Program-made: the position numbers and the translations under genes
In this document: positions 1 to 20,540 of the stretch, piece after piece
Position numbering within the stretch: position 1 is the first letter of the stretch
How the letters are laid out: every line of letters begins with the position of its first letter
Notes under the pieces: generated by a model
The model's database searches: none
Told to the model about the DNA's origin: nothing
The model's input: the letters and a program-made list of their open reading frames with translations, nothing else
IMG/VR virus record: IMGVR_UViG_2648501338_000019
Source of the DNA: a virus
Taxonomy: Duplodnaviria; Heunggongvirae; Uroviricota; Caudoviricetes
Strand: one strand, 5' to 3'
DNA length: 23,612 nucleotides

Positions 1-351
1 ATGCGAGAGACAGTCGAAATTATGCGTTATCCCGTCACTCTTACACCCGCGCCGGAAGGCGGTTATATGGTTTCTTTTGTGGATATCCCTGAAGCGTTGA
101 CCCAGGGCGAAACTGTCGCTGAAGCGATGGAAGCGGCAAAAGATGCTTTACTGACCGCATTTGATTTTTATTTTGAAGATAACGAGCTTATCCCGTTACC
201 TTCGCCATTAAATAGTCACGATCATTTTATTGAAGTACCTTTGAGCGTCGCCTCTAAGGTATTGCTGTTAAATGCTTTTTTACAGTCAGAAATCACTCAG
301 CAAGAGTTAGCCAGGCGAATTGGCAACCCGAATGTAGTCAACCCCAAATAA
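1..351 (+). CDS. hicB: HicB-family antitoxin, N-terminal (HicA-binding) domain only; C-terminal DNA-binding domain absent. Likely true start is the ATG at 22 (MRYPVTL...)
   Basis: Translation MRYPVTLTPAPEGGYMVSFVDIPEALTQGETVAEAMEAAKDALLTAFDFYFEDNELIPLPSPLNSHDHFIEVPLSVASKVLLLNAFLQSEITQQELARRIG matches my recollection of E. coli HicB nearly residue for residue; it then diverges (NPNVVNPK, stop) at about nt 322-330 where a full HicB would continue into its DNA-binding domain. Confidence 0.7.
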   Translation: MRETVEIMRYPVTLTPAPEGGYMVSFVDIPEALTQGETVAEAMEAAKDALLTAFDFYFEDNELIPLPSPLNSHDHFIEVPLSVASKVLLLNAFLQSEITQQELARRIGNPNVVNPK

Positions 352-574
352 CTAAAAATTTTGCAATAAAAAGCCCCATCACAAGGACAAGGCTTAGAAA
401 TCAACTAATTAACATAGTTTCCAGATCAAAAGGGTTATAATGAAATCCATAAAAGGTGATCTGTTAGCTGGGTGCTGTATATCTAAAATGTTACTTAATT
501 AATATCGTTCTGGTGGTTAGCTTTCATCGCATCCCACCAATCTTTTGTGATCTTCATGTTATTGAATTTCATAA

Positions 575-1342
575 TTATTTGCACCCGTACTGGTCAATGT
601 ATGTTCTTGAATATTTTTTATGTACTTCTAAGCGAATCATATCTTGATTATCACGCCACACATAATATTTTTTGTTATCCACTTGGCCTTCATATTGCAT
701 TGCGCCATTCTGATGCGTCACTGTTTTTGTCTTTGCTTTATGCGCGTCATAATTATCACGATACACAAATTCAATAATTTCCCCGTCTTTTACTTTAAGT
801 TTAAGTTCACCAGAGTTATAACGAGGATAGCCAATGTCTTTAACTGCTTTTGTTTCTACCCCGTCTTGGATTTCCCAGCTATAGTGAACATCGCATTGCA
901 ATGTCATGTCTCCGGTAAATCCTTTTGGTTTATCTTCAACCTTCGGTTCTTCCACCACTTTTTCTTCCTGTTTCGGTTGTTCTTCTTCAACCTTCGCAGA
1001 AGTCTCTGAAACGCTCCCTGACGCGGTTTCTTCTTTAGATAATACATTCATCAAGTTTTGGATTTGAGCGTTGTATACAGCCTCCAGTGGCTGAATCTGC
1101 CCGATATTGATCATTGTGTCACGAACAGTTTTATTCCAGTTACGTTGCTCTTGTTTAAGAGACGGATTAATCTTAACAGCCTTAACATATACTTCATGAA
1201 GTTTAGAATCCAGTGCGGAGATTGACTCATTAGCACAAATAAACTTCTCTGATTTGGTAGTAGCCTTAGTGCAATCAAAGGACGCAGCATCAGCACCGAA
1301 AGCAGTAGCAGAAAGCATGATAGCAGCGATAATGTTTTTCAT
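575..1342 (-). CDS. secreted protein with N-terminal signal peptide and LprI/DUF1311-like domain, E/K/P-rich linker and a C-terminal beta-rich domain
   Basis: ORF of 255 aa; N-terminus MKNIIAAIMLSATAFGADAAS resembles a Sec signal peptide; FDCTKATTKSEKFICANESISALDSKLHEVY...QRNWNKTVRD resembles the DUF1311/LprI fold; SD AAGAGGT upstream of the ATG on the minus strand. Confidence 0.55.
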   Translation of the reverse strand: MKNIIAAIMLSATAFGADAASFDCTKATTKSEKFICANESISALDSKLHEVYVKAVKINPSLKQEQRNWNKTVRDTMINIGQIQPLEAVYNAQIQNLMNVLSKEETASGSVSETSAKVEEEQPKQEEKVVEEPKVEDKPKGFTGDMTLQCDVHYSWEIQDGVETKAVKDIGYPRYNSGELKLKVKDGEIIEFVYRDNYDAHKAKTKTVTHQNGAMQYEGQVDNKKYYVWRDNQDMIRLEVHKKYSRTYIDQYGCK

Positions 1343-1563
1343 TTTATACCTCTTTTGGTATGGACTGACTTTTAGATGCTTACTTTATTGATTTTTGATA
1401 TTTTTTCAATTATTGGGGTGAGATTTAGTAATTAAATTAAGAAATTAATACTTGACAAATTAAAAAGGTACTGTTCCATGGATGAAATAAAGGGAGTTTT
1501 CGGCACCCTGGTATTTGATGTGCGTGTGAGATTCTAAAACGTGATCACTTCACTTATGGCGCG

Positions 1564-1576
1564 GTCGCTACGCGAC
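1564..1576. other. GC-rich inverted repeat (GTCGC-TAC-GCGAC) in an AT-rich leader about 125 bp upstream of the small terminase gene; candidate packaging (cos/pac) site
   Basis: Seen directly; position relative to terS is analogous to lambda cos upstream of Nu1. Flanked by TTAGA-n-GCG direct repeats and a TGCGTAA / TTACGCA inverted pair at about 1650-1690 that could be terminase-binding elements. Confidence 0.2.
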
Positions 1577-1700
1577 TATTAACCCACTTCCTAACCCTTA
1601 CCATTACTGGATCTTTCCCTTCGTTAGAATGCGATTTAGGCGCTTAGATTGTGCGTAAAACCAATAAATAAAATTACGCAAATTTAATGGAGGATAACCA

Positions 1701-2255
1701 ATGAAAGAAGAATTAACCCTTACAGAAATTTCCCGTTTATATGGCTATACATTGAATGGTGGCGGTAAGCGATGGTTAGAAAGGGGATTGCCATTTAACA
1801 CCAATACCCGCCGCGTGCCAGCCAAAGAAGGAACAGAATGGGTCTTGAAAAATATTATCAACCCGCTTAAACAAACTTCTATCAAAGAACAAATCGACGT
1901 AGAGAAATTACGCCGTGAACGTGCTTTGGCAGATGCAGCCGAACGAGAGAACCAGGAAAAAATGAATCTCCTGATTCCTGTCGGTTATGTAGAACAGGAA
2001 CTAGCGGAATACTGCGGGAAAGTGAAACAGACTATTTTGCAGATTTGTACGATCGATGCCCTAGAAATTTTAGAATCCGCCACTGATCAGAAAACATTGA
2101 AGAATAAGCTAAGGGAGATCATCGAACGTCGTTTAAATGAAGTAGGGGACTTGTTCGAAAATGCAGATTTGGGAGAAGACGAGGAAGAAGAATTAGCATT
2201 AATGGATGAACCGGAACAAGAACCAGAAGAAGACGATGAATTTGATGTGTCTTAA
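1701..2255 (+). CDS. terminase small subunit, lambda Nu1-like
   Basis: 184 aa; N-terminal winged-HTH-like segment with the GGGK motif (LNGGGKRWLERGLPF) and a following KLRRERA coiled segment resemble lambda Nu1; acidic C-terminal tail; SD GGAGGA 7 nt upstream of the ATG. Confidence 0.7.
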   Translation: MKEELTLTEISRLYGYTLNGGGKRWLERGLPFNTNTRRVPAKEGTEWVLKNIINPLKQTSIKEQIDVEKLRRERALADAAERENQEKMNLLIPVGYVEQELAEYCGKVKQTILQICTIDALEILESATDQKTLKNKLREIIERRLNEVGDLFENADLGEDEEEELALMDEPEQEPEEDDEFDVS

Positions 2256-2306
2256 AAATTAGATACTAAACATATACGTGAAGGATGTTGAGCTGGTCAA
2301 CGTCTA

Positions 2307-2339
2307 CGGGGGAGAACATCCCCCGCTAACCTTTTTCTT
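2307..2339 (+). terminator. stem-loop CGGGGGA-GAACA-TCCCCCG followed by a T-rich run; probable terminator/attenuator after terS
   Basis: 7-bp G/C stem seen in sequence; the T-run is separated from the stem by about 6 nt, so termination efficiency is uncertain. Confidence 0.45.
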
Positions 2340-2355
2340 ATTTGAGGATTTACCT

Positions 2356-2457
2356 ATGGTTGAATTTTTGATTTATCTGGCTGTAGGATTAACTATCGTA
2401 TATTCACTTGCTCACATTGGCATTTCTACTGTGTGTAACGCTTTCAAGTATCATTAA
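2356..2457 (+). CDS. small hydrophobic peptide (33 aa), one predicted TM segment
   Basis: ATG preceded by GAGGAT SD (TTTGAGGATTTACCTATG); product MVEFLIYLAVGLTIVYSLAHIGISTVCNAFKYH is almost entirely hydrophobic. Confidence 0.3.
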   Translation: MVEFLIYLAVGLTIVYSLAHIGISTVCNAFKYH

Positions 2458-2510
2458 TTAAATCGATGAATTGAACTATAGATGATGGTCGTTTTCAAAG
2501 AGGATTATCT

Positions 2511-2684
2511 ATGGATCTTTTTGTCTACTTTGCTACTCTGCTGTTTTTGACTATCGTCGCTGGCATTAAATTGATTTTTATATCGCTGGTGGTGTTTTTC
2601 AAATTTCTAATCGGTACGCCTTACGGCTGGGTATGCTTAATCCTGTTTATTCTTTTTAGTTGCTGTAAAAAGGATACTAAATAA
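2511..2684 (+). CDS. small membrane protein (57 aa), two predicted TM helices, lysine-rich C-terminus
   Basis: ATG preceded by AGAGGAT SD; product MDLFVYFATLLFLTIVAGIKLIFISLVVFFKFLIGTPYGWVCLILFILFSCCKKDTK. Confidence 0.4.
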   Translation: MDLFVYFATLLFLTIVAGIKLIFISLVVFFKFLIGTPYGWVCLILFILFSCCKKDTK

Positions 2685-2842
2685 TAGTGTAATCTGCCTT
2701 TTCTCCTTATGGTTATTAACAGGGGATCTTCTTTGAGGATTCCCGATTAAAAGCCATAAAACACACTCCAGTACAGTGTTTTCATAGTCAGTGATCTATA
2801 CAACACAAAAACATAACAAGTATAGATTGAGTATTAATCCTC

Positions 2843-2868
2843 CCGCCCTTCGGGGCGGTTATTTTTCT
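2843..2868 (+). terminator. rho-independent terminator (CCGCCC-TTCG-GGGCGG followed by TTATTTTT)
   Basis: Perfect G/C stem with a UUCG-type loop immediately followed by a T-run. Confidence 0.6.
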
Positions 2869-2942
2869 GGCTTTAAAGAATAATGTAGCATTATGTTCAT
2901 TATAACCTCATCTTTGTTGTGCAAACCTAACCTAAACTTACT

Positions 2943-2967
2943 AGGGACTCTTCGGAGTCCCTTTTTT
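2943..2967 (+). terminator. rho-independent terminator (GGGACTC-TTCG-GAGTCCC + T6); overlaps the stop codon of the convergent minus-strand gene
   Basis: 7-bp perfect stem, UUCG loop, six T residues; sits at the convergence point of plus and minus transcription units. Confidence 0.6.
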
Positions 2968-3208
2968 ATGCAACAATTCGAAGTGTAGGTTTCTTATGTT
3001 GTGTAGGTTTAGTTTCATTTCGCCACTCAGGAAACACCTGATCCATCATAACCGCATTAGTCTCATCAATCAGTTTTAAGGACTTTCTCAACGCCTTATT
3101 ATCAGCTTTAAGAGTTTTAATCTCTGATTCCATCGCTACCATTCTTTCTTTCATTTTGGTAATTTCTAACATCAGATTACCAAGAAATTCTTTGTTTTGA
3201 TTAATCAT
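2966..3208 (-). CDS. hypothetical coiled-coil protein (80 aa)
   Basis: ORF immediately downstream of the 347-aa gene on the minus strand; heptad-like ITKMKERMVAMESEIKTLKADNKALRKSLKL. Confidence 0.5.
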   Translation of the reverse strand: MINQNKEFLGNLMLEITKMKERMVAMESEIKTLKADNKALRKSLKLIDETNAVMMDQVFPEWRNETKPTQHKKPTLRIVA

Positions 3209-3223
3209 AGAATTACCTCTCTA

Positions 3224-4267
3224 TTAAGCTGCGTAGGCGTAGGCGTAGGCGTAGGCGTAGGCGTAGGCGTAGGCGTAGGCGTAGGCGCTGTAGTTGGTGT
3301 CATAGATAGCGTCATGCAGTGCCATCTGTGCTTCGCGGATCTCGTCTTCGTTTACTTCAATCTCTTCTTGTTCTTCTTCGGTATCTTCCCAAGTGGTTTT
3401 GAATTTAGCCATAAAGTTATTGCGCAGGGATTCAAAGTTAGTAACAGGTGCGGATTTTTCTTCAACCGGAACTACTACCGGATCAGCTTCTTTCTGTTCT
3501 TCCTGTCCTACTTTTTCACCGTTACCCCAGCGATAGTTAAGGAGTTCTTCCAGTTCTTCATCAATGGATTTTTCTTCAACTGCTTCAACTTCAACCGCTG
3601 CTACTTCGAAAGTGGTTTCCTGCGCTGCCAGTTCAGCTTTCAGAGATGCGTTTTCAGCTTCCAGTTCAGCAATGCGTGCTTTCAGTGCTTCAACTTCGGA
3701 AGATTCAACCACTGCAACTTCTTCTTTAACTTCTTCAACTACTACCGGAGCAACTTCTTTCTGTGCTTCTTTTTTGCAGAAGAAGGAGGAAGTAACCTGT
3801 AATGCGTGGTTGTAGAAGGAACCGCCTTTAGCGGTGTTAACAGTACCAGAAACATCCTTTACAGTGGATTCAGTAGCAACAGTACGGAAGCGTTTTGCAA
3901 CTTCCTGGGTCTCTACGCCGTATTCGTTACGCTTGCTCTTGTGATGCATTACAGCACGGAAGCCGGAAGCAGTTTTAATAACAGCGAGATAGTAAGTTTC
4001 ATCGGCTTTAACAGCACGAGCGAAGCAATAAACGGATTCACCTTCTACCAGTGTAGGTTTAACGTGACGTTTGTCGAAACGGTTAGTGATCTGCCATTCA
4101 GCACCGTCTTTGATGCCAGCATTCTGACGCATTTCGGTCAGAGTCTTACCGGATACTACTTCAAAGGATTTGTCTTGTTTGCTTGCTTTACCTTCCATAA
4201 CGGTAATGTTCAGTTTGCCGTTGGATTTGATGAATAGGTTGAAGGTGATGCGCTTAGAATTTTTCAT
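3224..4267 (-). CDS. hypothetical protein (347 aa): N-terminal globular domain, acidic linker, leucine-zipper-like coiled coil, acidic region and a C-terminal (Ala-Tyr)9 dipeptide repeat
   Basis: Good SD (AGGAG) 11 nt upstream of the ATG on the minus strand; sensible amino-acid composition, whereas the overlapping plus-strand ORF 3197-3802 is a Phe-rich low-complexity antisense artefact; coiled coil EALKARIAELEAENASLKAELAAQ. Confidence 0.6.
   Translation of the reverse strand: MKNSKRITFNLFIKSNGKLNITVMEGKASKQDKSFEVVSGKTLTEMRQNAGIKDGAEWQITNRFDKRHVKPTLVEGESVYCFARAVKADETYYLAVIKTASGFRAVMHHKSKRNEYGVETQEVAKRFRTVATESTVKDVSGTVNTAKGGSFYNHALQVTSSFFCKKEAQKEVAPVVVEEVKEEVAVVESSEVEALKARIAELEAENASLKAELAAQETTFEVAAVEVEAVEEKSIDEELEELLNYRWGNGEKVGQEEQKEADPVVVPVEEKSAPVTNFESLRNNFMAKFKTTWEDTEEEQEEIEVNEDEIREAQMALHDAIYDTNYSAYAYAYAYAYAYAYAYAYAA
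3231..3284. repeat. perfect hexanucleotide microsatellite (GCGTAG)9, which encodes (Ala-Tyr)9 at the 3' end of the minus-strand gene
   Basis: Nine uninterrupted GCGTAG units read directly from the sequence, followed by a degenerate unit GCGCTG. Confidence 0.95.
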
Positions 4268-4383
4268 TTATAAATACTCCTGAATGCTGTGTTAGTTTTA
4301 ATTGTTCATTTCAAGTCTCCTTTGCTGCAACAAGGGAGGCTTTTTATTTTTAAAGCCATCATATAATTCTCAGTGAAAGTGGA

Positions 4384-4563
4384 TTAACAAACTTGAACGT
4401 TAATCTTTACCTGAATTTCGTATTTCTTCATTAGCTTATAGAATCCGCTTCTATCAATCCCTTCCTTCTTAAAGAAGTTTTCCCCGCCTCGCTCAGTGTC
4501 GCTGTAAAACCGTTTAGCAATATCAACAATCATTTCACGAGTAAATTTAACAGGTCTAGCCAT
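4384..4563 (-). CDS. small HTH DNA-binding protein (59 aa from the ATG at 4563; the ORF track extends it to a GTG at 4578)
   Basis: MARPVKFTREMIVDIAKRFYSD...GIDRSGFYKLMKKYEI has a resolvase/transposase-type HTH signature; SD GAGGAA 9 nt upstream of the ATG at 4563. Confidence 0.5.
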   Translation of the reverse strand: MARPVKFTREMIVDIAKRFYSDTERGGENFFKKEGIDRSGFYKLMKKYEIQVKINVQVC

Positions 4564-4905
4564 AAATCGATTCCTCACATGTGGATTAATAATTCCTTAA
4601 AAAAGAGCTTTTCGCTCTGAACAATTCTATTTATAAAAATGATTTTCAAAAACTCTGTAAAACAACTGTATATCCGATCAGTGGGAGCACGAATTGCTAA
4701 AGAGAAGATTAATAATTAATCAATTCGTACAATATTCGACCGAAAAAGCACTGCATATCTAACCAGTGCTGTATGAATTAACAGTTAGTCAAGGGATTTT
4801 CAGAAGTGAACAATCATTTTTCATGCATTGTATTTATACACGAAAAATCATGCTTATCATCTATATGGGGATTGTTTGGAAAATTTCAACCCCTACCAAG
4901 GATAA

Positions 4906-4936
4906 AAAGTATAAAATAGTTCTTGACACATGTCAA
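4906..4936 (-). promoter_or_regulatory. candidate sigma70 promoter firing leftward (-35 TTGACA, 17-bp spacer, -10 TATACT); the -35 lies inside the inverted repeat TTGACA-CA-TGTCAA
   Basis: Hexamers and spacing read on the minus strand; the inverted repeat places a second TTGACA on the plus strand, which suggests an operator or divergent promoter. Confidence 0.4.
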
Positions 4937-4964
4937 CATTCATGATCTAAGCGAGAAAGGTGTA

Positions 4965-5133
4965 TCAAAATTTTTGTTTGAAAATGGCAAATAATGATTA
5001 TCAACCTTTTAAACCTTATATGGCACGGAGATCTTTTGAAAATTTCTTTTAAATCATGAATTTACATCTATTTTTGGTGGTTTTTTGGTTGAATAATATA
5101 CAAGAATTTTTTGTCAAAATTTTTGATTGAAAA
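4965..5133. repeat. AT-rich region with two copies of the 20-bp direct repeat TCAAAATTTTTG(T/A)TTGAAAA (4965-4984 and 5114-5133) and related A/T tracts
   Basis: Seen directly; lies immediately upstream of the iteron array. Confidence 0.5.
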
Positions 5134-5252
5134 CCTACACTACACACCTACCCTTTAAAGGGATTGGCCTACACTACACTAGCCAGTAAACCTACACTAT
5201 AACACCCTCAAACCTACACTATGAAACCTACACACCTACACTAACCCTACAC
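5134..5252 (+). repeat. iteron-like array: 7 perfect plus 1 variant copy of CCTACAC (4 as the 10-mer AAACCTACAC) in about 120 bp, three of them at 22-bp spacing
   Basis: Copies at 5134, 5169, 5191, 5213, 5227, 5235, 5246, with variant CCTACCC at 5147; counted directly. Confidence 0.8.
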
Positions 5253-5597
5253 TTCAATCACGTAAGTGTATGACCTTGAAAGGTATTATACCCCACAGAC
5301 CATAGAATATAAAATTCGAACTAACGTTCTCCTTTTTGCTCGCTTTCTCTCACTACGTTCAAGAAAGATCTCGCAAAAAGAATACGGCGTAGCCGTGCGC
5401 GTAGCGCCCACCAACACCTTCTAAGACCTGCAAGCAGGATTCGAAAGGGATTGATAGTTCGCTTCGCTCACGTTCACGCCTACGGCGTTCACTCACTTTT
5501 AAAAGGATTTTCTTAGAAAGGGATTTAATACTAGTTACTAACTGATTCTAGTAAACGAACGAAGTGAGTAACAATCAATTTCTAGAAAGGTATTGGT

Positions 5598-5626
5598 ATC
5601 CCTTCGGGATTGCAACCTTCGGTTGC
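5598..5626 (+). other. two adjacent UUCG-loop hairpins (ATCCC-TTCG-GGGAT and GCAACC-TTCG-GTTGC) in non-coding DNA; possible RNA 3' end or processing/stability element
   Basis: Perfect stems seen in sequence; no overlapping ORF; not followed by a clean T-run. Confidence 0.35.
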
Positions 5627-5867
5627 TAAATTGCTTCCTGATTATTATTTCTTCAAAAGAAAGATTCTTATATTCTAAAGATACTTCTTCGTTTTGATGA
5701 TGATTTAATCAAATCTATGAAGGGGGGCTTTAGCCCGACTGAATCCAATCATCTTTCAAGTACAGACCAGTTTTGGACTCTACCAGATCACTCTTTTCAT
5801 AATAACAAGAATTTTCTCTTTATAAATAATATTAGATTGATTCGCTTTCTTTTAGAGGATTTCCACT

Positions 5868-6335
5868 ATGAACCATAAAATGACTACCACTACTCCTTTC
5901 ATCCTGTTAGGTTTTGATGCTGATAGCTTCCACAATGACAAGTTAATGAAGATCTTTGTTGAACGTGGTTACAACATTCTTTTCAACTCTGATGAATCTC
6001 ATTTCTCTAGTGTATGGTATGCGTTTTGCCGTAATAAGAAGCCGACCATTGTTGTTAACGTCTTCACCGATGAAGGCCGCTTAAAGTACCAGAATATTCC
6101 AGCGATCATCGTTAGCGAATACCTTCCTTTCGAAGTCCGTTCCGGTGATGTTGATCTGGGTAGCTTCTTTACTCTTCAAGAACTGGATGAAGCAATGTTT
6201 AACTACGGCAAAGAAACCGCTCAGAAAGCACCAGAACGCGATGAAGAAGACGAAGATGATGATGACTACGCACCAATCGCTTTTTCTTCTCACGGTGGCT
6301 TCTACGGTTACGATGAAGGCTTAGATATGCTGTAA
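5868..6335 (+). CDS. hypothetical protein (155 aa) with a strongly acidic C-terminal segment (ERDEEDEDDDDY)
   Basis: ATG preceded by AGAGGAT SD; no family recognised from sequence. Confidence 0.55.
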   Translation: MNHKMTTTTPFILLGFDADSFHNDKLMKIFVERGYNILFNSDESHFSSVWYAFCRNKKPTIVVNVFTDEGRLKYQNIPAIIVSEYLPFEVRSGDVDLGSFFTLQELDEAMFNYGKETAQKAPERDEEDEDDDDYAPIAFSSHGGFYGYDEGLDML

Positions 6336-6457
6336 GTTAGGTCAACCCTTTGGCATCTTGTCAAGGGGTATTGGCAAAATTTTCAGACTTTTTTATGATT
6401 ATCGCACTTGACAACTTTGAACTGATTTGACCTAGGTTTGTAAAGAGGATGTGAACT

Positions 6458-6610
6458 ATGAATACTACTAAGAAAATTGATGGACGTAAAAACCCGAACC
6501 GCAAGCCGTGGACACCAAACCTGAATTTCTCGATGGTTGATTACCACGAACGCCAGCGCCAGATTCAAGAAGAAATTGATCGCTGCCTGGCTGAATACAA
6601 AACGAGATAA
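6458..6610 (+). CDS. small basic protein (50 aa)
   Basis: Not in the ORF track (under 60 aa) but has a strong AGAGGAT SD 7 nt upstream of the ATG; product MNTTKKIDGRKNPNRKPWTPNLNFSMVDYHERQRQIQEEIDRCLAEYKTR. Confidence 0.35.
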   Translation: MNTTKKIDGRKNPNRKPWTPNLNFSMVDYHERQRQIQEEIDRCLAEYKTR

Positions 6611-6694
6611 AACTTCTTATAAATAAAATTGTTCCGGTGGTGATGCCGGAACAGGGAGGATTAAATCACTAAACCGTTAAGGGGGATTTTTACT

Positions 6695-7492
6695 ATGAAT
6701 ACTGCTGTTAAAACTGCTTCCGTGTCTCTGGTTGTTGATAACACCAAACCACTGACCATGTCTTCTCGTCAGATCGCTGAATTTACCGGAAAAGAACACA
6801 AAAACGTTAAAGCTGATATTGTTAAGATGTTTAAAGCACTTGAATTAGATGCGCTGAAATCTCAGCGTATCTATTTTGACCAATATGGACGCGAACAAAC
6901 CGAATATCACCTTGACGAAGAAATGACGCTGACTCTTGTTACTGGTTACGATGTTAAACGTCGAATGATTGTTATTCAGGAATGGAAACGACTGAAAGAA
7001 GAAAATGAAAAACTGCGTCAGGAACGTTTAGCCGTTAACCCGTATGCAGACTTTGAAGAAACCGACTGGATCGAACTGGCGTTAAAGAAAACTCGCGAGA
7101 ACAAGCAACTGATTACTCTACATCATCGCAAATCCGTAGATAGCCATTCAATGACGCGTCTGTTAGGTGCTAAAAAGGGCGCTACGAAGGTTAAAGAAGC
7201 ACTGACGGCCTTACGTACTGCCGGATACATTGAGCGCGTCTATGATGAAAATAACAAGCCGTGTGGGTATGTTGCTAATGATTCCGCGATACCGTTTTGC
7301 AGCATGAACGCTCACTATCAACTTTCTTTCACTGTTGATGTGCTTCCGGTGCTGGTTGAATTGGGTGTTCTTGAAGAAGAACAAAAAGCAGCTTTGACAC
7401 TGCCTAAACCGAATAACACGATCATGATTCAGAATAAAGCGACTATCATGATTCGTCAGAATGTTGGATCGCTAGAACACTTCGGACTGTAA
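6695..7492 (+). CDS. phage regulatory protein, Rha family (antirepressor-like N-terminal domain)
   Basis: N-terminal LTMSSRQIAEFTGKEHKNVKADIVKMF matches the Rha/pRha signature as I recall it; followed by a strong terminator. Confidence 0.6.
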   Translation: MNTAVKTASVSLVVDNTKPLTMSSRQIAEFTGKEHKNVKADIVKMFKALELDALKSQRIYFDQYGREQTEYHLDEEMTLTLVTGYDVKRRMIVIQEWKRLKEENEKLRQERLAVNPYADFEETDWIELALKKTRENKQLITLHHRKSVDSHSMTRLLGAKKGATKVKEALTALRTAGYIERVYDENNKPCGYVANDSAIPFCSMNAHYQLSFTVDVLPVLVELGVLEEEQKAALTLPKPNNTIMIQNKATIMIRQNVGSLEHFGL

Positions 7493-7500
7493 TAATTTTT

Positions 7501-7527
7501 GCCCCTGAATTTCAGGGGCTTTTTTGT
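7501..7527 (+). terminator. rho-independent terminator (GCCCCTGAA-T-TTCAGGGGC + T7)
   Basis: 9-bp perfect stem followed directly by TTTTTTG. Confidence 0.75.
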
Positions 7528-7538
7528 ATCTGTAGGTA

Positions 7539-7566
7539 TAAAAAAAGCCAACCCCGAAGGATTGGC
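7539..7566 (-). terminator. minus-strand terminator (on minus: GCCAATCC-TTCG-GGGTTGGC + T8) downstream of the 76-aa gene
   Basis: Imperfect stem with a U-run when read on the minus strand. Confidence 0.5.
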
Positions 7567-7574
7567 CTAGAGAA

Positions 7575-7805
7575 TCAATTTCCTGTTGCTTCTACCATTT
7601 CACCGTCAACCTGAACAAAGAATTTCAAATCAACTTTATGTAGGGATTTGTATAGCTGGGCTATAGATAAGCCATGCTCATTTAATACCCGTTCTTTGTT
7701 CTCTTTACCTTTCGGTGCTTGATAGTACGCTTTTACAATCTCTGCCAGTTGTTCACGATTAAAACGGGCAGGACGACCGCGAGTAGCTTTAGTAGTCATA
7801 GTCAT
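7575..7805 (-). CDS. small HTH DNA-binding protein (76 aa; an alternative ATG at 7799 has better SD spacing); paralog of the 4384-4563 product
   Basis: TRGRPARFNREQLAEIVKAYY...GLSIAQLYKSL shares the R-P-x-x-F-x-R-E...I-x-K-x-Y-Y pattern with the 59-aa protein; the only early-region gene with a TGA stop. Confidence 0.5.
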   Translation of the reverse strand: MTMTTKATRGRPARFNREQLAEIVKAYYQAPKGKENKERVLNEHGLSIAQLYKSLHKVDLKFFVQVDGEMVEATGN

Positions 7806-7833
7806 TTCTCCAAATTAAAGTGAATGTTCACCT

Positions 7834-8439
7834 TTATTTAGAGGACTTACATTTTATCGGAAAAAGTTCTCCATCGTCAACTGACATAAAAAACTCTGCC
7901 TTAATCCCGTACTTCTTCAACCGTGAATAGTATGTACCCCGACTTATATCAACCTTGCGCAGCACTTCGAAGAACTCTTTAGGATTCCTGTAATAATGGC
8001 TATATCGCACGTTAGCGAGTTCTACAAACAATTCCCTTGTATCACCATAGCCTTTCTTGAAAGCCACGTTACGATAGCGTGTAATGGCATGATTCAATCT
8101 CTTCTGTTTAAGCACTTCCCTGATCGGCTTCCACTGCAACCGATAGATTGGACCGTCATCCACTCGATAATAACGCTTGATATCAAAATCAAACCATTCA
8201 CGGACTCGCTGAAACTCTGTCTGTGATGTTCGGTGCTTCTTAAAGAAGTTATGGATATCTGTATACCCATGATCGCGATACAACTCGATTAAAATTTGCT
8301 TCGCTTCTTCGCGACTAAAACCGGATGTAGTGTAATCAGTCTTCTTGTGATGGTGCTTAACTGGCAAACGATATTCATGATCGGTACAACAAGACAAGGC
8401 TAATTCTAATTCATCTCTTTCTTGCTGATTAATTAGCAT
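7834..8439 (-). CDS. hypothetical protein (201 aa) whose C-terminus carries the same HTH motif (DISRGTYYSRLKKYGI)
   Basis: ORF with the HTH motif shared with the two small HTH proteins; transcribed divergently from the large terminase gene. Confidence 0.5.
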   Translation of the reverse strand: MLINQQERDELELALSCCTDHEYRLPVKHHHKKTDYTTSGFSREEAKQILIELYRDHGYTDIHNFFKKHRTSQTEFQRVREWFDFDIKRYYRVDDGPIYRLQWKPIREVLKQKRLNHAITRYRNVAFKKGYGDTRELFVELANVRYSHYYRNPKEFFEVLRKVDISRGTYYSRLKKYGIKAEFFMSVDDGELFPIKCKSSK

Positions 8440-8526
8440 ACACCCCCCTTAAATCTTAATACCCGTATTTATCAAAATATCAACAATTTAATAAATACCT
8501 TCATATTTCGTAATGAGGGTAATTAC

Positions 8527-10431
8527 ATGAAACTGATTTCTAATAAGGCCAAATTAAAAAAGATTCTTAAAAATATCTCTGCGGCAATTCGCCCACCTAA
8601 AACGATGAAACCTAGCGAATGGGTAGAGGCTAATGTAGTTGCAACCGATGGTGTTAAAGCCGGATCTCTAATTAAGTTGCATCCCTTCCAACGTGGAATG
8701 ATGGACGCGATCACCGAAGATAGGCGAAAAATTGTGCTAAAGTGCTCGGCACAGTTGGGTAAAACTCTTGTGCTAAACGGTATTATCTTTCACAGGATCG
8801 CCAGTAACCCTACTAATATCGGTGTTTTGCAAGCGAACGTTCGAGAATTGAACTCATGGATTGCGGGTAAGGTGAAGCCAGTATTAGAGGCAACCCCAGA
8901 ATTAAAGGCGATGATCACCGACAAATCAGATCGCAATGCCGTTAACAACTCATCGATTATTCAGCTTCGTAACGGATCATTCATGTATTTCATGTCGCTG
9001 AACAGTCCATCACACTTGCGCGGTAAGACACTGCCTTTGATTATTCTGGATGAAGTTGATGCGGCTGATGAGTCAGACGAAGGGAACCCGATCCAGCTAG
9101 CGGAACAACGCGCAACCACTTTCGGTGATGATGCAAGGATCGTAATTGCTTCTACTCCAACTTCGCGGGATGGGGCGATAAACCAACAATGGGAACTCTC
9201 GGATAAAAGAAAATACCACGTCGTTTGCCAGCATTGCGGACACAAACACGTAATGGAATGGAGTAGAGTATTCTTTGATTGGCATGTAATCAATGGTAAA
9301 TCACTGCCGAATCCAGACACAGCCGTTTACCGTTGCCCGTCATGTGAAACTGATTGGTCAGAACCAGATCGCCTCCGTGCTGTTGCTCAGGGAGAATGGG
9401 TCGCCACCGAACCAAATGCGGAAGTAATCGGTTTTCATGCTAACCGCCTTATGTCTCCGTTTAGTTCTATCCGTGCGTGTGTGGTGGACTTTGCTGATAG
9501 CTACGCGAATATGTCACTGGCAACGTTCTATAATGTGGTGCTCGGTGAAACCTTCGATGATCTTAACGAAGACCGCACAGCCGACGAACTGGAAACGCTG
9601 AAAACTGACATTAGCTTAGATAATATTCCTGATGATGTTCTGGCTCTGGTAGGTGGAGTTGACCAGCAAAAAGACCGTCTGGAATCTACCTTGCTGGGTA
9701 TCTCTCGTAAGGGGATATGCGTAGTTGATCACCGATCATTCTATGATGTGAACTGCGAACGCCACGAATCGCCAGCATATGACCAGCTTTACAACTTCCT
9801 GAAAGCTAAATTCTATACCCGATCAGGTCAACGAATCCCGATGCTATCTGCTTTCGTGGACTCATCGAACGGACGAGCTACAAACGTGATCTATCGCTTC
9901 TGCACTAGGTGGCAAAACCTATGCGCCATTAAAGGGGCAAGCAATGTTGATGCTCCAATCCTTCCGGTCAAGGACACAAGAACGGGTGGTTTTACTCTTA
10001 AAATTCTGGGCGTAAACAACCTTAAGACGATGATCCGTGAAATGATTAACCGGAACTTGAGAGACAGCGATCCTCATACGGTCTTCCAGATTGGTGACGT
10101 TCCTGATGACTACTGCGAACAATTGTTATCTGAACAGTTGAAACGGCAGGGTAATACCACACGTTGGGTAAAAGTTGGTCAGCAACGAAACGAGGCTCTC
10201 GACTGCCTGGCTTATTCCTATGCTGCTTCTCGCCATGTACTCAATAAAATGTCATGGGAAAAACTCGAAGCCATCAAAGATAGTTTGAACCGCGAACCAG
10301 AAGAACCCGTAGAAGCTCCTAAATCGCAATCTGACGAGCAAATCGAAGAAAATAAGCCAATCACACGACCACAACGTAAAAACATCGCCAGACGCCCAAA
10401 TAGAGGCCGTAGCTGGGTAACATCGTTCTAA
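8527..10431 (+). CDS. terminase large subunit, lambda GpA family
   Basis: 634 aa; Walker A-like KCSAQLGKT, Walker B-like LIILDEVD, and overall length and layout like lambda gpA (N-terminal ATPase, C-terminal nuclease); strong SD. Confidence 0.9.
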   Translation: MKLISNKAKLKKILKNISAAIRPPKTMKPSEWVEANVVATDGVKAGSLIKLHPFQRGMMDAITEDRRKIVLKCSAQLGKTLVLNGIIFHRIASNPTNIGVLQANVRELNSWIAGKVKPVLEATPELKAMITDKSDRNAVNNSSIIQLRNGSFMYFMSLNSPSHLRGKTLPLIILDEVDAADESDEGNPIQLAEQRATTFGDDARIVIASTPTSRDGAINQQWELSDKRKYHVVCQHCGHKHVMEWSRVFFDWHVINGKSLPNPDTAVYRCPSCETDWSEPDRLRAVAQGEWVATEPNAEVIGFHANRLMSPFSSIRACVVDFADSYANMSLATFYNVVLGETFDDLNEDRTADELETLKTDISLDNIPDDVLALVGGVDQQKDRLESTLLGISRKGICVVDHRSFYDVNCERHESPAYDQLYNFLKAKFYTRSGQRIPMLSAFVDSSNGRATNVIYRFCTRWQNLCAIKGASNVDAPILPVKDTRTGGFTLKILGVNNLKTMIREMINRNLRDSDPHTVFQIGDVPDDYCEQLLSEQLKRQGNTTRWVKVGQQRNEALDCLAYSYAASRHVLNKMSWEKLEAIKDSLNREPEEPVEAPKSQSDEQIEENKPITRPQRKNIARRPNRGRSWVTSF

Positions 10432-10503
10432 TAACTCGCCGTCCTTCGGGGCGGCTTACTCCTAAATATTGTTAATCCAATAACAATTAAATAAGGGGTA
10501 ATT

Positions 10504-10998
10504 ATGAGTTTAGAACTAATTCCCTTAGTAATTCGTAAAGGCGAAAAAGTCACGCTGGCGAATGAAGAGGGTGTAACAATTCAGGTAGGAAATAATAAAG
10601 GTATTATCTATCAGGTTGATGATTCTCCGGCTAATCATGAGATTAAAACCTTAGATTTTGCCGAAGGTAAATATACCATCGTAATAACTTTGGAAGAAGA
10701 ACTGGTATCAATGCAGGAATTAACTGTTTTGCCAGTATTCGCCAAACAATCCAAAAAAGAATATCTGCGGGAAACTATCGCCTTAATCGAGCAAGTTATT
10801 TTCGCCCGTTTATCTGGGGACGAAGCCGCATTATCTCAAATGACAGTGAAAGGGAATACTTTCGCCTATGAGTCATTGGCTGTTCTCCAGCAATTAAAGA
10901 CTGATTATGAACGTCAGTTATCTAAATTAATTCAAGCCGAACGACGTAAACAGGGAATTAGTCCGATTAAAAATATCAAATTACGTCTTACGCGATAA
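10504..10998 (+). CDS. hypothetical head-module protein (164 aa) in the position lambda gpW occupies between terminase and portal
   Basis: Synteny only; conserved TAAGGGGTAAT initiation motif upstream. Confidence 0.45.
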   Translation: MSLELIPLVIRKGEKVTLANEEGVTIQVGNNKGIIYQVDDSPANHEIKTLDFAEGKYTIVITLEEELVSMQELTVLPVFAKQSKKEYLRETIALIEQVIFARLSGDEAALSQMTVKGNTFAYESLAVLQQLKTDYERQLSKLIQAERRKQGISPIKNIKLRLTR

Positions 10999-11008
10999 GG
11001 GGTAAATC

Positions 11009-12520
11009 ATGTTTAATCTTTTTCGACGCAAAAAGGCGGTAGAAACTCCAGTTAAAACTAATCACCGCCAGCAACAACAAAAAATCTTTATCGACAAACA
11101 AGTAGAAAAATTCCAGAAATCTCTGGCTACTCGAAGTTTAGGTCTGGTTGGTGATCGCATTGATGGATCGCTTCAACAAGATACTATCACAGGAACCTTC
11201 AATAAGGCTCTCAAATCGAATGGTAAGCGCCTTTATGATCAGGGTCGTACTCTGGCCTTAAACACCTCCGTAGGCAGTCGCTACACGCAATACATCACCG
11301 ATATGGTGGTAGGTACTGGCCTAGATCCGAAGCCGTCAGTTGTTAAATCAAATGGAAAACTTGATAGCGCACTGAATAAGCAGATCGAGAATGCTTTCTG
11401 GAAGTGGGCGCAGAATGCTAAACGCTTCTCTCGTAACGGTCGCTTTAACTTCCGTGAATTGCTGGTAATGGCTGAACGTGAGCGCGTTATGGGTGGTGAG
11501 TGCTTCATAGTTTTAACCAAAGAAAACAATGAGTTAAATGTTTCTATCCTGTCTGCTGATAAGTGCGACTGGACGCTCAACCGTGAAGTAAGCAAAGAAC
11601 GCGCTATCTATCAGGGGATCGAGTATGACGTAGAAACAATGCGCCCTGTTGCATTTTGGTTTCGTAAAATCAACCTACTGACTCAGACTTACACAGGTGA
11701 TAACTATCGCGTAGATGCTTCGCAAGTATGTCATTATTATCAACCACTTGCGGCTGAATCTCTGCGTGGTGTGACTGACTTCCTGCCAGTGATTAAGGAT
11801 ATCGCACATCAAGACGCATTCCGCGAAGCTGTACTGGTACATAAACGAATTTCAAGTTGTAGCATGGCGTTCATCGAGCGTCCGAAAGATTCTGGTGACG
11901 ATTTTGATACTGGTGAAGATGATGAACAATATCAAGCGCCGGAAGTTATTCACGATTTCGCGCCAGGTACTATTCAGGAATTACCGGAAGGGGCAACGAT
12001 CAAGAGTATTCAATCCACGCAAAGCGGCGATGACTTTAACAGCTTCAATGATGGAATGTTCACGAGTATAGCGATGGGTCTTGGCGTGTTCAATCAGGGC
12101 TTAACTGGCGATACTAGCCAAATAAATTACAGCGCCGCACGCTACGGCGAATTACTTCAAAGAACGCGCGTTAAAGCACTGCAAAACAAATTGATTGAAA
12201 CAGTGGTATTGCCAATTTTTGAAGCATATCTACGCCATTATTCTGCGCGTGGTATTGTTCCGATTCGTATTACTGCAATTCCGCATATTATCGAGAACAC
12301 TACTATTATTCGTCCTCGTTTTGAATCCGTCGATCCATTTAAAGACGTAAGCGCCGAGATTGCTTTAATTGATAACGGACTTAAATCACGTACTGCCGTT
12401 ATATTAGAACGTGGTGATGATCCTGAAAAAGTATTCTCAGAGATTCAAGCCGAAAAGAGCGCACTAAATATTATCGTTGATGGTGAGAGCAAGGATAACC
12501 CTTCTCAAACCGATCCCTAA
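11009..12520 (+). CDS. portal protein, lambda gpB-like
   Basis: 503 aa directly after the terminase; segments such as FNSFNDGMFTSIAMGLGVFNQGL resemble the lambda gpB core; acidic C-terminal tail. Confidence 0.85.
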   Translation: MFNLFRRKKAVETPVKTNHRQQQQKIFIDKQVEKFQKSLATRSLGLVGDRIDGSLQQDTITGTFNKALKSNGKRLYDQGRTLALNTSVGSRYTQYITDMVVGTGLDPKPSVVKSNGKLDSALNKQIENAFWKWAQNAKRFSRNGRFNFRELLVMAERERVMGGECFIVLTKENNELNVSILSADKCDWTLNREVSKERAIYQGIEYDVETMRPVAFWFRKINLLTQTYTGDNYRVDASQVCHYYQPLAAESLRGVTDFLPVIKDIAHQDAFREAVLVHKRISSCSMAFIERPKDSGDDFDTGEDDEQYQAPEVIHDFAPGTIQELPEGATIKSIQSTQSGDDFNSFNDGMFTSIAMGLGVFNQGLTGDTSQINYSAARYGELLQRTRVKALQNKLIETVVLPIFEAYLRHYSARGIVPIRITAIPHIIENTTIIRPRFESVDPFKDVSAEIALIDNGLKSRTAVILERGDDPEKVFSEIQAEKSALNIIVDGESKDNPSQTDP

Positions 12521-12565
12521 TAACCAACGGGGGCGCAATGCCCCCAATTAATTAAAGGTGATTAA

Positions 12566-14572
12566 ATGCTTAAATTTCGCCGCGATCTTAACGGTTACGG
12601 TGGAGTTATTAACGAAGGGCAGAATGATCAATACGAATTTGAAATTGCTTTCTCCAGTGAACAGCCTTATCAGCGCCAATTCTGGGATGAGCAAAATCAA
12701 GAAATGGTGGTATTAGATGAAATTCTGGTACATACACCGGAAGCGGTTGATCTGTCTCGTCTGAATAATAACGCTCCGTTGCTGTTCAATCATAATTTCG
12801 ATAATCATATTGGTGTCGTTTGTAACGCTCGAATCGATGCGGATAACGTAGGTCGTGCTCTGGTTAAATTCTCTAAGCATGGCACTTTGGCTAATGATAT
12901 TCGTAATAAAGTCATTGAAGGTACGATGGAAAAAATTTCTGTCGGTTATGACATTAAAGAATATCACATCGACTACACCAAAGGACAATTGATTGTTACT
13001 AAATGGATTCCTCACGAGGTTTCATGGGTGTCTGTTCCCGCAGACGACACCGTGGGTCTGAATCGCTCTCTAAATACTATCACAGTTAATTTGGAGGCTA
13101 AACGCGATATGACTAAAGAACAAATCGAAGAAATCAAAGAAGAACAAGAACCCGCTCAGGTTGAAGAAACTCCGGTAGAAGAAAATAAAGAACCGGAAGT
13201 AGAAGAAACTCAAGAGCGCCAAGTTGAAGAGAATAAAGAAGATGAAAATCTCGAAGACGGAAAAGACGCTAAACATCCTGAAAGTGTTGATGATGATAGT
13301 TCAACTGTTCGGGAAACAGAAGAAGTAAAAGAAGAACGTGAAGCCGCTCCGGTTGAAGAAGAAAAAATCGAAGAAGTGGCTGAACGTTCCGAAGAAGACG
13401 AAGAAGAAATCCGAGCAATCGCTCGTGAGTTAAATATTAACGACGAAGAATTAGAACGCGCATTGGCAGTTAAAGATATGACGCCGGAAGCATTCCGCAC
13501 TAAGGCACTAAATAACATTACCAATGCTCAACGTAATAACGAACAAATTAATAAGGAACAAATCATGGAAAAAACTTTCGATCTTAATAACGTAATCCGC
13601 TCCCTGGTAGATGGCGACGTGCTCGGCGCTAACGAAGCTGAATATTCCGCTATGGCTGCTGGTGCTGCAATGCAGCGTGGTCGTGCTGCTCGCGGTGGCT
13701 CTGTATTCGTTCCGGCTGCTGCTCTGCGTGCTGCTTCCGAAGGTAACACCAAAGCTACTCTGACCGCTGTAACCGACGAAAAACTGCTGACCGAATCCTA
13801 TGTAGAAATGCTGCTTCCACAGTCTGTTCTGGGTCGTCTGGGTGTGACTGTTCTGTCTGGTCTGAATAGCCCGATTGCAGTACCAAAAATGACTGCTTCC
13901 AGCGTCGAAGCCTTTGGTTTTGTTGATGAAAATGGAAGTGCCCCCGAATCGAAGGCTAGCTTTGAAAACGTGAAAATGGCTCCGAAAACTTTTGCTGGTG
14001 GCAACCCGATCAGCCGTCAGTCTCTGAAAACTGTTCCGAATATTGCTACCCTGATCACTGATCACATTAACAAATCTGTTCGGATCAAACTGGAACAACT
14101 GATTCTGTCTGACAAAGACAACGAGCGCGGTCCGAAAGGTCTGGTTAAGCAACTGGTAGACGGTGGTCGCGTTACTAAGAAAGCCGCTTTTAGCTACAAA
14201 GACTTCCTGAAAGAAATTGCAGCACTGACCGACGCTGGCGTTCCGGCACAGTCCATCAAGTTTGCAATGAGCGGTGCAACTGCTGCTGAACTGGAATCTA
14301 CCCTGAAAGATAACGGCGTTTCCGGTTATATCATCGAAAACGGCAAACTGGCTGGTTACGATGTAGTTACTTCTGGCGTTATTCCGGCAGACCACATCGT
14401 TCTGGGTGACTTCTCCGGTATCATGATCGGTGAATGGGGTGGTCTGGAACTGGATATGGACGACACCACTTACCGCGCACAGTCTGCTATCGTTCCGCGT
14501 ATCTGGGTAGACCTGGACTTCACCGTAGTTCAGCCGGAAGCTCTGAAAGTTCTTCACATCTCCGCTGAATGA
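12566..14572 (+). CDS. prohead protease - acidic scaffold-like linker - HK97-fold major capsid protein fusion (668 aa); TGA stop
   Basis: N-terminal region resembles HK97-family prohead protease, the middle about 130 aa is E/K-rich (scaffold/delta-like), the C-terminal about 330 aa resembles HK97-type major capsid proteins; lies between portal and neck genes. Confidence 0.8.
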   Translation: MLKFRRDLNGYGGVINEGQNDQYEFEIAFSSEQPYQRQFWDEQNQEMVVLDEILVHTPEAVDLSRLNNNAPLLFNHNFDNHIGVVCNARIDADNVGRALVKFSKHGTLANDIRNKVIEGTMEKISVGYDIKEYHIDYTKGQLIVTKWIPHEVSWVSVPADDTVGLNRSLNTITVNLEAKRDMTKEQIEEIKEEQEPAQVEETPVEENKEPEVEETQERQVEENKEDENLEDGKDAKHPESVDDDSSTVRETEEVKEEREAAPVEEEKIEEVAERSEEDEEEIRAIARELNINDEELERALAVKDMTPEAFRTKALNNITNAQRNNEQINKEQIMEKTFDLNNVIRSLVDGDVLGANEAEYSAMAAGAAMQRGRAARGGSVFVPAAALRAASEGNTKATLTAVTDEKLLTESYVEMLLPQSVLGRLGVTVLSGLNSPIAVPKMTASSVEAFGFVDENGSAPESKASFENVKMAPKTFAGGNPISRQSLKTVPNIATLITDHINKSVRIKLEQLILSDKDNERGPKGLVKQLVDGGRVTKKAAFSYKDFLKEIAALTDAGVPAQSIKFAMSGATAAELESTLKDNGVSGYIIENGKLAGYDVVTSGVIPADHIVLGDFSGIMIGEWGGLELDMDDTTYRAQSAIVPRIWVDLDFTVVQPEALKVLHISAE

Positions 14573-16303: not shown

Positions 16304-16335
16304 GGATTCTCCTACCTAAATAAAACATGAACGTT

Positions 16336-16368
16336 GGGAGGTTAACGCCTCCCTTATTCCTGTTTTAT
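16336..16368 (+). terminator. stem-loop GGGAGG-TTAACG-CCTCCC followed by a T-rich tract; candidate terminator/attenuator before the fibre gene
   Basis: Perfect 6-bp stem; the downstream TTATTCCTGTTTTA is only moderately U-rich. Confidence 0.4.
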
Positions 16369-16384
16369 AGTGAGGTGATTCTAG

Positions 16385-19885: not shown

Positions 19886-19941
19886 TAAAAGTCGGGGGAC
19901 TAGTTCCCCCGTAATAACAATTTTAATTAAGGGGTAATTCT

Positions 19942-20415: not shown

Positions 20416-20535
20416 ACTAACGAAGAACTTCCCGAACCGGAACCACAGCCGGAACATGAAGCGGTGGTGATTCCAGAAGTAGAAGAAGTTACGGCGAAAG
20501 CCACAGCTAAACGAAGCCGCAAGGCTAAAGATTAA
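20416..20535 (+). CDS. in-frame 39-codon extension after the major tail gene TGA (TNEELPEPEPQPEHEAVVIPEVEEVTAKATAKRSRKAKD, then TAA); candidate readthrough product
   Basis: Frame checked codon by codon; shares the opening TGA ACT AAC G and the closing VTAKAT-x-K...RK-x-K motif with the capsid extension. Confidence 0.4.
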   Translation, partial: TNEELPEPEPQPEHEAVVIPEVEEVTAKATAKRSRKAKD

Positions 20536-20540
20536 TTATA

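Follow-up and report, generated by a model that had tools for sequence, protein, structure and literature searches.

In phage lambda the packaging module has the order cos-nu1-A-W-B, and nu1 (191-736) overlaps A (711-2636) by 26 bp right after cos. In P2 and 186, the small terminase subunit gpM and the large subunit gpP are encoded in divergent late operons with shared late promoters, about 2-3 kb apart and with scaffold and capsid genes between them. In T7, the genes of gp18 and gp19 are parted by the small lysis genes 18.5 and 18.7 (less than 1 kb) within one late operon of a phage with direct terminal repeats. Satellites of the SaPI/PICI type carry a stand-alone terS and no terL, and the terL of the helper is hijacked. 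In reviews the packaging genes of tailed phages are described as normally clustered (PMC13595911, PMC3185647). Here, the terminase genes of the IMG/VR virus record IMGVR_UViG_2648501338_000019, a stretch of 23,612 nucleotides that is called the window in the following, were analysed. A Nu1-like small terminase gene (terS, 1701-2255) and a gpA-like large terminase gene (terL, 8527-10431) had been reported in a preliminary description of this stretch to lie about 6.3 kb apart; these coordinates hold, and the interval between the two genes (2256-8526) was found to measure 6,271 bp.

The best explanation, which is considered probable as a whole, is a terminase composed of a Nu1-family TerS and a gpA-family TerL, the genes of which are unlinked by the early core region of a phage of about 35 kb that is integrated in hicB and carries a serine recombinase. 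As in the lambda module, the same protein families are present, and downstream of terL come a head-tail joining gene and the gene of a lambda-type portal; unlike in lambda, 6.3 kb of early genes lie between the two terminase genes, terS has its own terminators and terL belongs to a divergent pair. The locus resembles P2 and 186, compared by description only, as a cos phage with non-adjacent terminase genes in different transcription units, but the whole early/control region intervenes here, whereas in P2 only head genes of the morphogenesis cluster do so. T7 is similar in that its terminase genes are not strictly contiguous and differs in the protein families and the packaging strategy. A terS located away from terL and with its own regulation is also seen in the satellites; unlike in these, terL and a full virion set are present in the same element.

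New is the splitting of a Nu1/gpA pair by an entire early region in an arrangement that is stable across the lineage, while non-adjacent terminase genes as such were already known in P2-like and T7-like phages, and the finding overturns no principle. No account of the prophage family or of split Nu1/A genes turned up in literature searches. Tools that seek terS beside terL will miss a Nu1-family protein labelled 'hypothetical protein'. A lambda-type terminase that persists with unlinked genes over four enterobacterial genera, and in which terL alleles of 58% identity swap beside a constant terS, would set a natural limit on the linkage and the co-evolution needed by the Nu1-gpA partnership. 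The locus moreover points to an uncharacterised group of temperate phages of about 35 kb and 41% G+C with a serine recombinase and a site in hicB, in which replication genes are not recognisable and a repeat array is coupled to proteins.

The terminase subunits and the conservation of their separation

The 634 amino acid (aa) product of the open reading frame (ORF) 8527-10431 (+ strand) was unambiguously assigned to the gpA-type large terminases on its predicted ATPase and endonuclease domains, GpA_ATPase (PF05876, E = 1.4e-59, residues 50-291) and GpA_nuclease (PF20454, E = 4.8e-46, residues 301-571), and matched PHROG 15 with 1.8e-141. Downstream of terL the genes of a head-tail joining protein of 164 aa (10504-10998, +; PHROG 5774, 3e-9) and of a lambda-type portal (11009-12520, +; PHROG 21, 3e-66; Phage_portal_2 of Pfam in relatives) were found, with which the late operon continues.

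The terS gene (1701-2255, +) encodes a protein of 184 aa which, to judge from its profile matches, is a true member of the small-terminase family. It matched PHROG 57 'terminase small subunit' with an E value of 6.1e-11 (residues 24-172 to positions 31-191 of the 199 of the profile), i.e. as a full-length match to the own family of lambda Nu1, which itself scores 1e-76. Related proteins from Proteus and from the record of phage DCP80 reached 1e-22 and 9e-20, respectively, with near full-length coverage. An alignment of the 18-member family profile to lambda Nu1 with hhalign gave a probability of 93% and an E value of 2.7e-7 (residues 5-94 to 3-112), and Phage_Nu1 (PF07471) was the top Pfam family in 10 of the 18 family members (best E value 8.6e-5). 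Among the matches of a profile search against the PDB were three small-terminase DNA-binding domains including 1j9i, with weak E values of 0.1-0.8. The AF2 model (pLDDT 72) has an N-terminal winged helix-turn-helix (HTH), a strand at residues 38-40, a 49-residue helix (41-89), a helical C-terminal domain and a disordered acidic tail (EEDDEFDVS), which corresponds to the Nu1-type succession of a winged HTH and a helical oligomerisation region.

No second small-terminase candidate emerged within the ORFs of the prophage. The 164-aa ORF after terL was considered as an alternative TerS and rejected as a head-tail joining protein; the 201-aa ORF upstream of terL (7834-8439) was rejected as well, as it has no TerS-like fold and Foldseek and the PDB profile search remained blank.

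In order to compare the layout, 35 other loci with both genes were collected from complete E. coli genomes, IMG/VR proviruses, Logan contigs, Salmonella, Proteus and Atlantibacter; in the complete E. coli genomes, terS and its upstream block were found in 63 of 5,426. The synteny comparison with related phages that had been proposed in the preliminary description was thereby carried out, and the split was found everywhere: the gap between terS and terL amounts to 4.8-8.6 kb in 35 of 35 loci, and the genes adjoin in none. This holds for TerS identities to the window of 53% (Salmonella), 53% (Proteus) and 36% (Atlantibacter). The relatives have in common the order of a leftward operon (about 100, 320 and 60 codons), 1.3-1.4 kb without genes, an acidic protein of 151-157 aa, a variable slot, two leftward genes (about 75 and 200 codons) and terL; the slots of the interval hold divergent alleles, as in phage mosaicism, and the architecture is unchanged. 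In the DCP80 record no terS is present within 1.7 kb upstream of terL, and a terS-like gene is kept straight after the lysis genes.

For the analysis of the ancestral state, one genome per species was scanned for gpA-type terminases, which yielded 80 loci with TerL proteins of 27-31% identity, except for Atlantibacter. A hidden Markov model (HMM) of the Nu1-like family was searched against the ORFs of these loci, and 15 distant homologues, i.e. all matches apart from Atlantibacter and one multi-HTH protein, were found to end between -101 and +20 bp from the estimated terL start. In most of them the match covers about positions 58-150 of the profile, the non-HTH part, and many match only there, which argues for kinship with small terminases and not merely with winged-helix proteins. 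Together with the overlap of nu1 and A, these loci bear out the view taken in the preliminary description that adjacency of Nu1 and A is the norm of lambda-like modules. As the 15 homologues lie directly upstream of terL, adjacency is ancestral and the split was derived in the ancestor of the enterobacterial lineage; the split is, on this comparison, a conserved oddity of layout of the lineage that arose by an ancestral rearrangement.

Two terL alleles are present in the E. coli relatives, about 97% and about 58% identical to that of the window; the allele of the window is nearer to the terL of Salmonella (81%). They are exchanged as a cassette, while the flanking 201-aa and 164-aa genes and terS stay 87-100% identical (terS alleles of the E. 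coli relatives: 88-100%). Both terL alleles have the N-terminal 16 and the C-terminal approximately 70 residues in common; the N-terminal 16 residues, MKLISNKAKLKKILKN, are identical in both E. coli alleles, and their KLK+I core is found in Salmonella, Proteus and DCP80. On the side of TerS, the acidic tail (..EEFDVS) with the invariant F181 is conserved. We infer that a short contact between a basic helix of TerL and the acidic tail of TerS would explain the tolerance towards either allele. TerS would act in trans, would bind DNA through its N-terminal winged HTH and would recruit TerL through its tail via the conserved basic N-terminus of TerL.

The early region between terS and terL

The interval is, to judge from its content, core early DNA for replication or regulation and not cargo. 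This reading is based on the co-variation of a repeat block with the leftward operon, on the Rha-type regulator and on the lack of other candidate early genes in the prophage, where no candidates for regulatory or replication genes were found outside the interval. About ten CCTACAC repeats are located at 5131-5260 within a repeat block at 5131-5490. Of the 39 tabulated loci, the 13 with the o80/o347 allele of the window (12 relatives and the source contig of the window) all have this block, and the other 26, without the allele, all lack it; o80 and o347 are the genes of the 80-aa and 347-aa proteins of the leftward operon. The 64-aa gene (o64) and the left part of the gap, which lie between the block and the operon, assort independently, and so do terS and terL. 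The block is therefore a probable binding array of the 347-aa and 80-aa proteins, and since protein and DNA site stay together through recombination, the two probably form an initiator-iteron or a repressor-operator pair, the proteins of the operon binding the array as origin iterons or as operators. A function of the repeat array as the recognition site of terS was rejected, as it is the o80/o347 allele, and neither terS nor terL, with which the array co-varies. Inverted CCTACAC copies are also present at 2977-3010.

As a whole, the early core between terS and terL would consist of the leftward operon, a control region of about 1.3 kb with the repeat array, a rightward operon and two putative regulators divergent from terL, and divergent promoter-like sites and terminators mark the limits of the operons. 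Following terS, a variable accessory slot contains two small hydrophobic ORFs (2278-2457 and 2511-2684, +), which is taken by a 94-aa ORF or is empty in relatives. The leftward operon comprises genes for a coiled-coil protein of 80 aa (2966-3208, -), for 347 aa (3224-4267, -) and for 64 aa (4384-4578, -), which occur as allelic cassettes at a fixed position; no family match was obtained for the three proteins in Pfam, PHROG and NCBIfam. The 3′ end of the 347-aa gene is a perfect hexanucleotide repeat (GCGTAG, 9.5 copies, 3231-3287) that encodes a C-terminal (AY)n tail. The homologue in E. coli H2 has 333 aa and aligns only over residues 1-332, and the C-termini may thus differ in the number of repeats, possibly by a slippage-prone tract.

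The control region (4579-5867) has 1,289 bp without a convincing ORF, a near-consensus leftward promoter-like site at 4936-4908 and rightward ones near 5800. The rightward genes (5868-7492, +) start with that of an acidic 155-aa protein in a conserved slot (5868-6335, +) and include a 50-aa ORF and, in the variable slot, a Rha/Ant-type regulator (6695-7492, +; Phage_pRha of Pfam, 2.7e-11). Two leftward genes, for 76 aa (7575-7805, -) and 201 aa (7834-8439, -), are kept in all relatives and are divergent from terL. The membrane ORFs, the leftward operon, the 1.3-kb gap, the acidic protein and Rha had been listed in the preliminary description and were recovered here, but its 'HTH genes' found no support, as the 76-aa and 201-aa proteins gave no HTH match in the libraries; neither has a TerS-like feature. 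In its AF2 model the 201-aa protein consists of two units of a helical bundle plus a hairpin, without a PDB match. One small domain, made up of a three-helix bundle and a subsequent hairpin that bears the motif (F)FxxVDDGE, recurs in the 64-aa protein, in the 76-aa protein and in each half of the 201-aa protein; the 64-aa and 76-aa proteins have in addition an N-terminal (G)RPxxF arm. By these features the domain is a predicted paralogous family that is confined to the prophage lineage and has no relative in PDB or Pfam.

Between the 201-aa gene and terL lies a divergent control region of 87 bp (8440-8526) with GATAAATA at 8466-8473 (-) and AATAAATA at 8490-8497 (+). It is AT-rich and promoter-like, and near invariant in E. 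coli, Salmonella and Proteus, independent of the terL allele. Judged by distribution, accessory behaviour is confined to the gene of an LprI-family protein upstream of terS, the Rha slot and the pair of small membrane ORFs.

Upstream regions, shared boxes and rival explanations

The terS gene is the first conserved phage gene past the left prophage junction attL and is preceded by a conserved non-coding block (1452-1700), a candidate regulatory and/or cos/TerS-binding region. In E. coli relatives the approximately 250 bp before terS are near invariant from 1452 on, and the part 1540-1650 differs along with the N-terminal allele of terS. The block contains GGGAGTTTTCGGCACCC (1492-1508), a GC-rich palindrome GTCGC-TAC-GCGAC (1564-1576) and an inverted repeat TGCGTAA-N15-TTACGCA (1652-1680), which surrounds the AATAAATA box of terS and could be an operator. 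Salmonella retains the inverted repeat as well as a GTTT(T)CGG element, and the GAGTTTTCGG element of the block is deeply conserved. Downstream, two intrinsic-terminator-like hairpins (2843-2962, +) were predicted, at 2843-2858 (CCGCCCTTCGGGGCGG plus a T run) and at 2943-2962; with its own conserved upstream block and its own terminator-like hairpins, terS is, as far as these predictions hold, a closed unit. By analogy with lambda, the block of 250 bp upstream of terS is the best candidate for cos, although the chance that cos lies there is put at somewhat less than even, and this step is the weakest part of the best explanation.

A 25-nt inverted match (22 of 25 positions) was noted between the terS leader region (1621-1645) and the 3′ end of terL (10313-10337), for which the chance expectation is about 0.003 by a rough estimate of the authors. 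It is kept at 18-23 of 25 positions in E. coli relatives and is absent in Salmonella and Proteus. A role in RNA pairing or as a second binding site was considered and not upheld; compensatory changes were not seen.

Three copies of AATAAATA are present in the window, all on the + strand and at similar distances from start codons: at -38 nt of terS (1663-1670, in the spacer of the inverted repeat), at -37 nt of terL and at -39 nt of ORF 21136 (21097-21104), each with a similar ribosome-binding context, TAATGRRG, 3′ of the box. In the full prophage the core ATAAATA occurs 11 times, no more than the composition predicts; 9-10 of the 11 copies are intergenic and directed at a gene within 100 nt, and for six of them the distance to the start codon downstream is 32-41 nt, the genes being terS, terL, that of the 201-aa protein, one tail gene, one right-arm gene and the lysis cassette (in the locus L003, VATAAATA boxes are located at 37252, 44001 and, on the - strand, 47484). 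Other prophage genes carry TATAAATA, GATAAATA or CATAAATA about 32-41 nt before the start codon, or at 51 nt in the case of the 155-aa gene. The boxes of terL and of the 201-aa gene are invariant from E. coli to Proteus. These positions suggest that AATAAATA is a shared promoter-like signal, which fits a firing of terS with terL. The coordination of the two genes would then rely on the box about 37 nt before each ATG and not on operon linkage, the box being also found before lysis and tail genes.

The AATAAATA box matches the consensus (T/A)ATAAATA of T4-like late promoters, which is recognised by gp55 (PMC1524935). Unlike in T4, no homologues of gp55 or gp33 were detectable when sought in the prophage, and TATAAATA variants, with the same core, precede early-looking genes; the box is therefore taken as a promoter-like signal only, and VATAAATA may simply be the -10-like element of the phage. 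A code of T4-late-type VATAAATA promoters about 35 nt before terS, terL, the lysis cassette and tail genes, in place of operon linkage and read by a phage factor or by gp55 of a superinfecting T-even phage, is regarded as a long shot. Compatible with such a link to T-even phages are the gp37/gp38 fibre genes of the prophage, the 26-kb block co-assembled with a T4-like genome in PQ671644 and the position of terS, which faces the end of the late operon across attP. If it were true, the unlinking would let terS, and probably cos, occupy the prophage end as a unit that is fired independently. On the attP side no strong + strand terminator was found between the end of the late operon and terS, and late transcription may, as a speculation, run on across attP into terS.

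Several observations weigh against the assignment of a split terminase. The whole case is computational. The terS copy of the window gave no Pfam match at E ≤ 1 and no NCBIfam match and stays below all curated thresholds, among the E. coli matches listed its RefSeq label is 'hypothetical protein', and it neither adjoins nor overlaps terL. In a Foldseek search of the TerS model against the PDB, the N-terminal domain gave only non-significant matches of the MerR/BldC/Xis type, and its MerR-like fold is common to excisionases and regulators. Beside either terL allele terS is near constant, without the co-variation that would be expected for interacting partners. The window has no more AATAAATA copies than expected by chance, only their positions being unusual. 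No packaging site was located in the window; the local alignment of 1400-1700 to lambda cos/cosB was no better than that of shuffled sequences and gave no likeness to lambda cos. Contigs of 34.9-37.7 kb were found to end about 370-390 bp upstream of terS or about 280 bp past the LprI gene, near the hicB junction, but these ends were rejected as physical cos ends: since other contigs run on past the same points, they appear to be assembly branch points and probably att or variable-moron boundaries, and the IMG/VR loci are trimmed proviruses. A megablast search of 1400-10600 against the 50,697 phage records of INPHARED gave no match, so that no known relative can supply genome ends; apart from the apparently chimeric DCP80 record this collection holds no cultured relative, and none that is alike at the DNA level.

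Part of these observations would be accounted for if the Nu1-like protein were no longer a packaging subunit, as the preliminary description had offered as one of two possibilities, and acted as a MerR/Xis-type DNA-binding protein that regulates transcription or sets the direction of recombination by the serine recombinase, with TerL working alone or with an unrecognised partner. The constancy of terS beside both terL alleles, its place next to attL and outside the late operon with an upstream block and terminators of its own, and the non-significant fold matches to BldC, MerR-family regulators and the mycobacteriophage Xis would all fit, as would weaker secondary matches of TerS relatives to PHROG 66 'excisionase and transcriptional regulator' (3e-5 to 9e-5). 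However, the best and longest matches are those to the Nu1 family, and the likeness to proteins in the canonical position extends over the non-HTH C-terminal part. With 184 aa, a coiled coil and an acidic tail the protein is unlike small Xis proteins, and it was not found to be of the Xis type, i.e. HTH-only and linked to the recombinase: terS lies at the prophage end opposite the recombinase, and the DCP80 block keeps terS after the lysis genes without a recombinase in the block. No other TerS candidate is present in the prophage, and terS and terL have the upstream box in common. A different role is thus disfavoured and considered unlikely, a function as directionality factor staying conceivable on account of the N-terminal fold shared with excisionases and MerR proteins and of the gene position beside attL. 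The preliminary description had further envisaged relatives with the same split as a conserved arrangement and a different small terminase elsewhere; the conserved split was indeed observed, but a different small terminase was not.

The other possibility offered there, a recent mosaic insertion of about 6.3 kb of accessory cargo into an adjacent Nu1-A pair of this prophage, draws on the ancestral adjacency in distant relatives, on the partly mosaic interval (small transmembrane ORFs, Rha and allelic operon cassettes) and on the G+C content of the window of about 41%, below that of E. coli (typically about 51%). It is contradicted by 35 of 35 related loci from four genera that have the split and the same gene order down to a TerS identity of 36%, the operon, the gap, the acidic protein and the 76-aa and 201-aa slots following in the same order in all relatives and not as in a cargo or moron island. 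The interval moreover holds the sole candidate control or replication functions and a co-varying pair of protein and site, and the low G+C content is that of the whole prophage and not of the interval. An insertion would survive only as a deep ancestral rearrangement, given that the distant homologues adjoin gpA terminases. That the prophage is decaying or defective and the arrangement without functional meaning was judged very unlikely. No recognisable replication protein or CI-type repressor and no cultured relative in INPHARED besides DCP80 speak for this, but in dozens of genomes of four genera the ORFs for structure, lysis and integration are all intact and keep their synteny, there is active allele exchange of the kind seen in populations of live phages, and the att-bounded contigs of 34.9-37.7 kb suggest excised or polymorphic copies. 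The separated Nu1-gpA terminase remains the preferred explanation.

Prophage setting and further observations

According to its flanks, the window covers the left two thirds of a temperate phage of about 35 kb that is integrated in hicB, as it starts with the 5′ part of the host hicB gene (1-351, +; HicB_lk_antitox of Pfam, 5.5e-8), which ends at attL, and as a split hicB flanks an element of about 35 kb in E. coli H2. Two hicB pseudogene halves enclose the prophage in H2, a strain with an identity of about 90% to most of the window; by the insertion the hicB antitoxin gene is truncated, and hicA beside it is intact. A closer match is E. coli C325, with 99.9-100% identity to positions 1-14136 of the window. 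The H2 element has the order of an LprI-family gene, terminase, portal, protease-capsid fusion, tail, tail-fibre and M15-endolysin genes, and a large serine recombinase of 559 aa and three small leftward genes are found at its right end. The whole prophage, at 13334-48497 of L003, covers 35 kb with a complete gene set for virion, lysis and integration. Family-library scans and the inspection of the right-arm ORFs, which are without recognised function, revealed no recognisable replication protein or CI/Cro-type repressor in the 35-kb prophage, and Rfam and tRNA scans of the window gave nothing. The LprI-family moron between attL and terS (575-1342, -; LprI of Pfam, 2.6e-5; PHROG 14799, 1e-114) is missing or swapped in Salmonella, Proteus and many E. 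coli loci.

Within the late region, a 668-aa protease-capsid fusion ORF (12566-14572) contains a TAAATAC box, GGAGG and an in-frame ATG (13109, codon 182) in the region 13071-13111. This ATG may be a nested start, the product of which would be a scaffold/capsid protein without the protease. A gene for a 1,166-aa distal tail fibre of the T-even type (PHROG 1699, gp37-like) and a gene for a gp38-like adhesin (20584-21090, PHROG 1121) lie within 15470-21090, and the fibre genes are flanked by paralogous tail-tube-like genes (15470-16303 and 19942-20415), an odd location for such genes.

The DCP80 record (L008/L124/L040; GenBank PQ671644.1, Escherichia phage) is a 'complete genome' of 141 kb that was filed as a T4-like Gaprivervirus. 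It opens with a 26-kb block (terL, tail genes, endolysin and the terS-like gene) that is distant kin of the prophage family. In the remainder T4 genes are doubled (two rIIA, two spackle and two nucleoid disruption proteins), and the protein accessions are out of order. By these features a T-even phage and a second phage from one lysate seem to have been joined in this record, as a chimera or by mis-scaffolding of the assembly.

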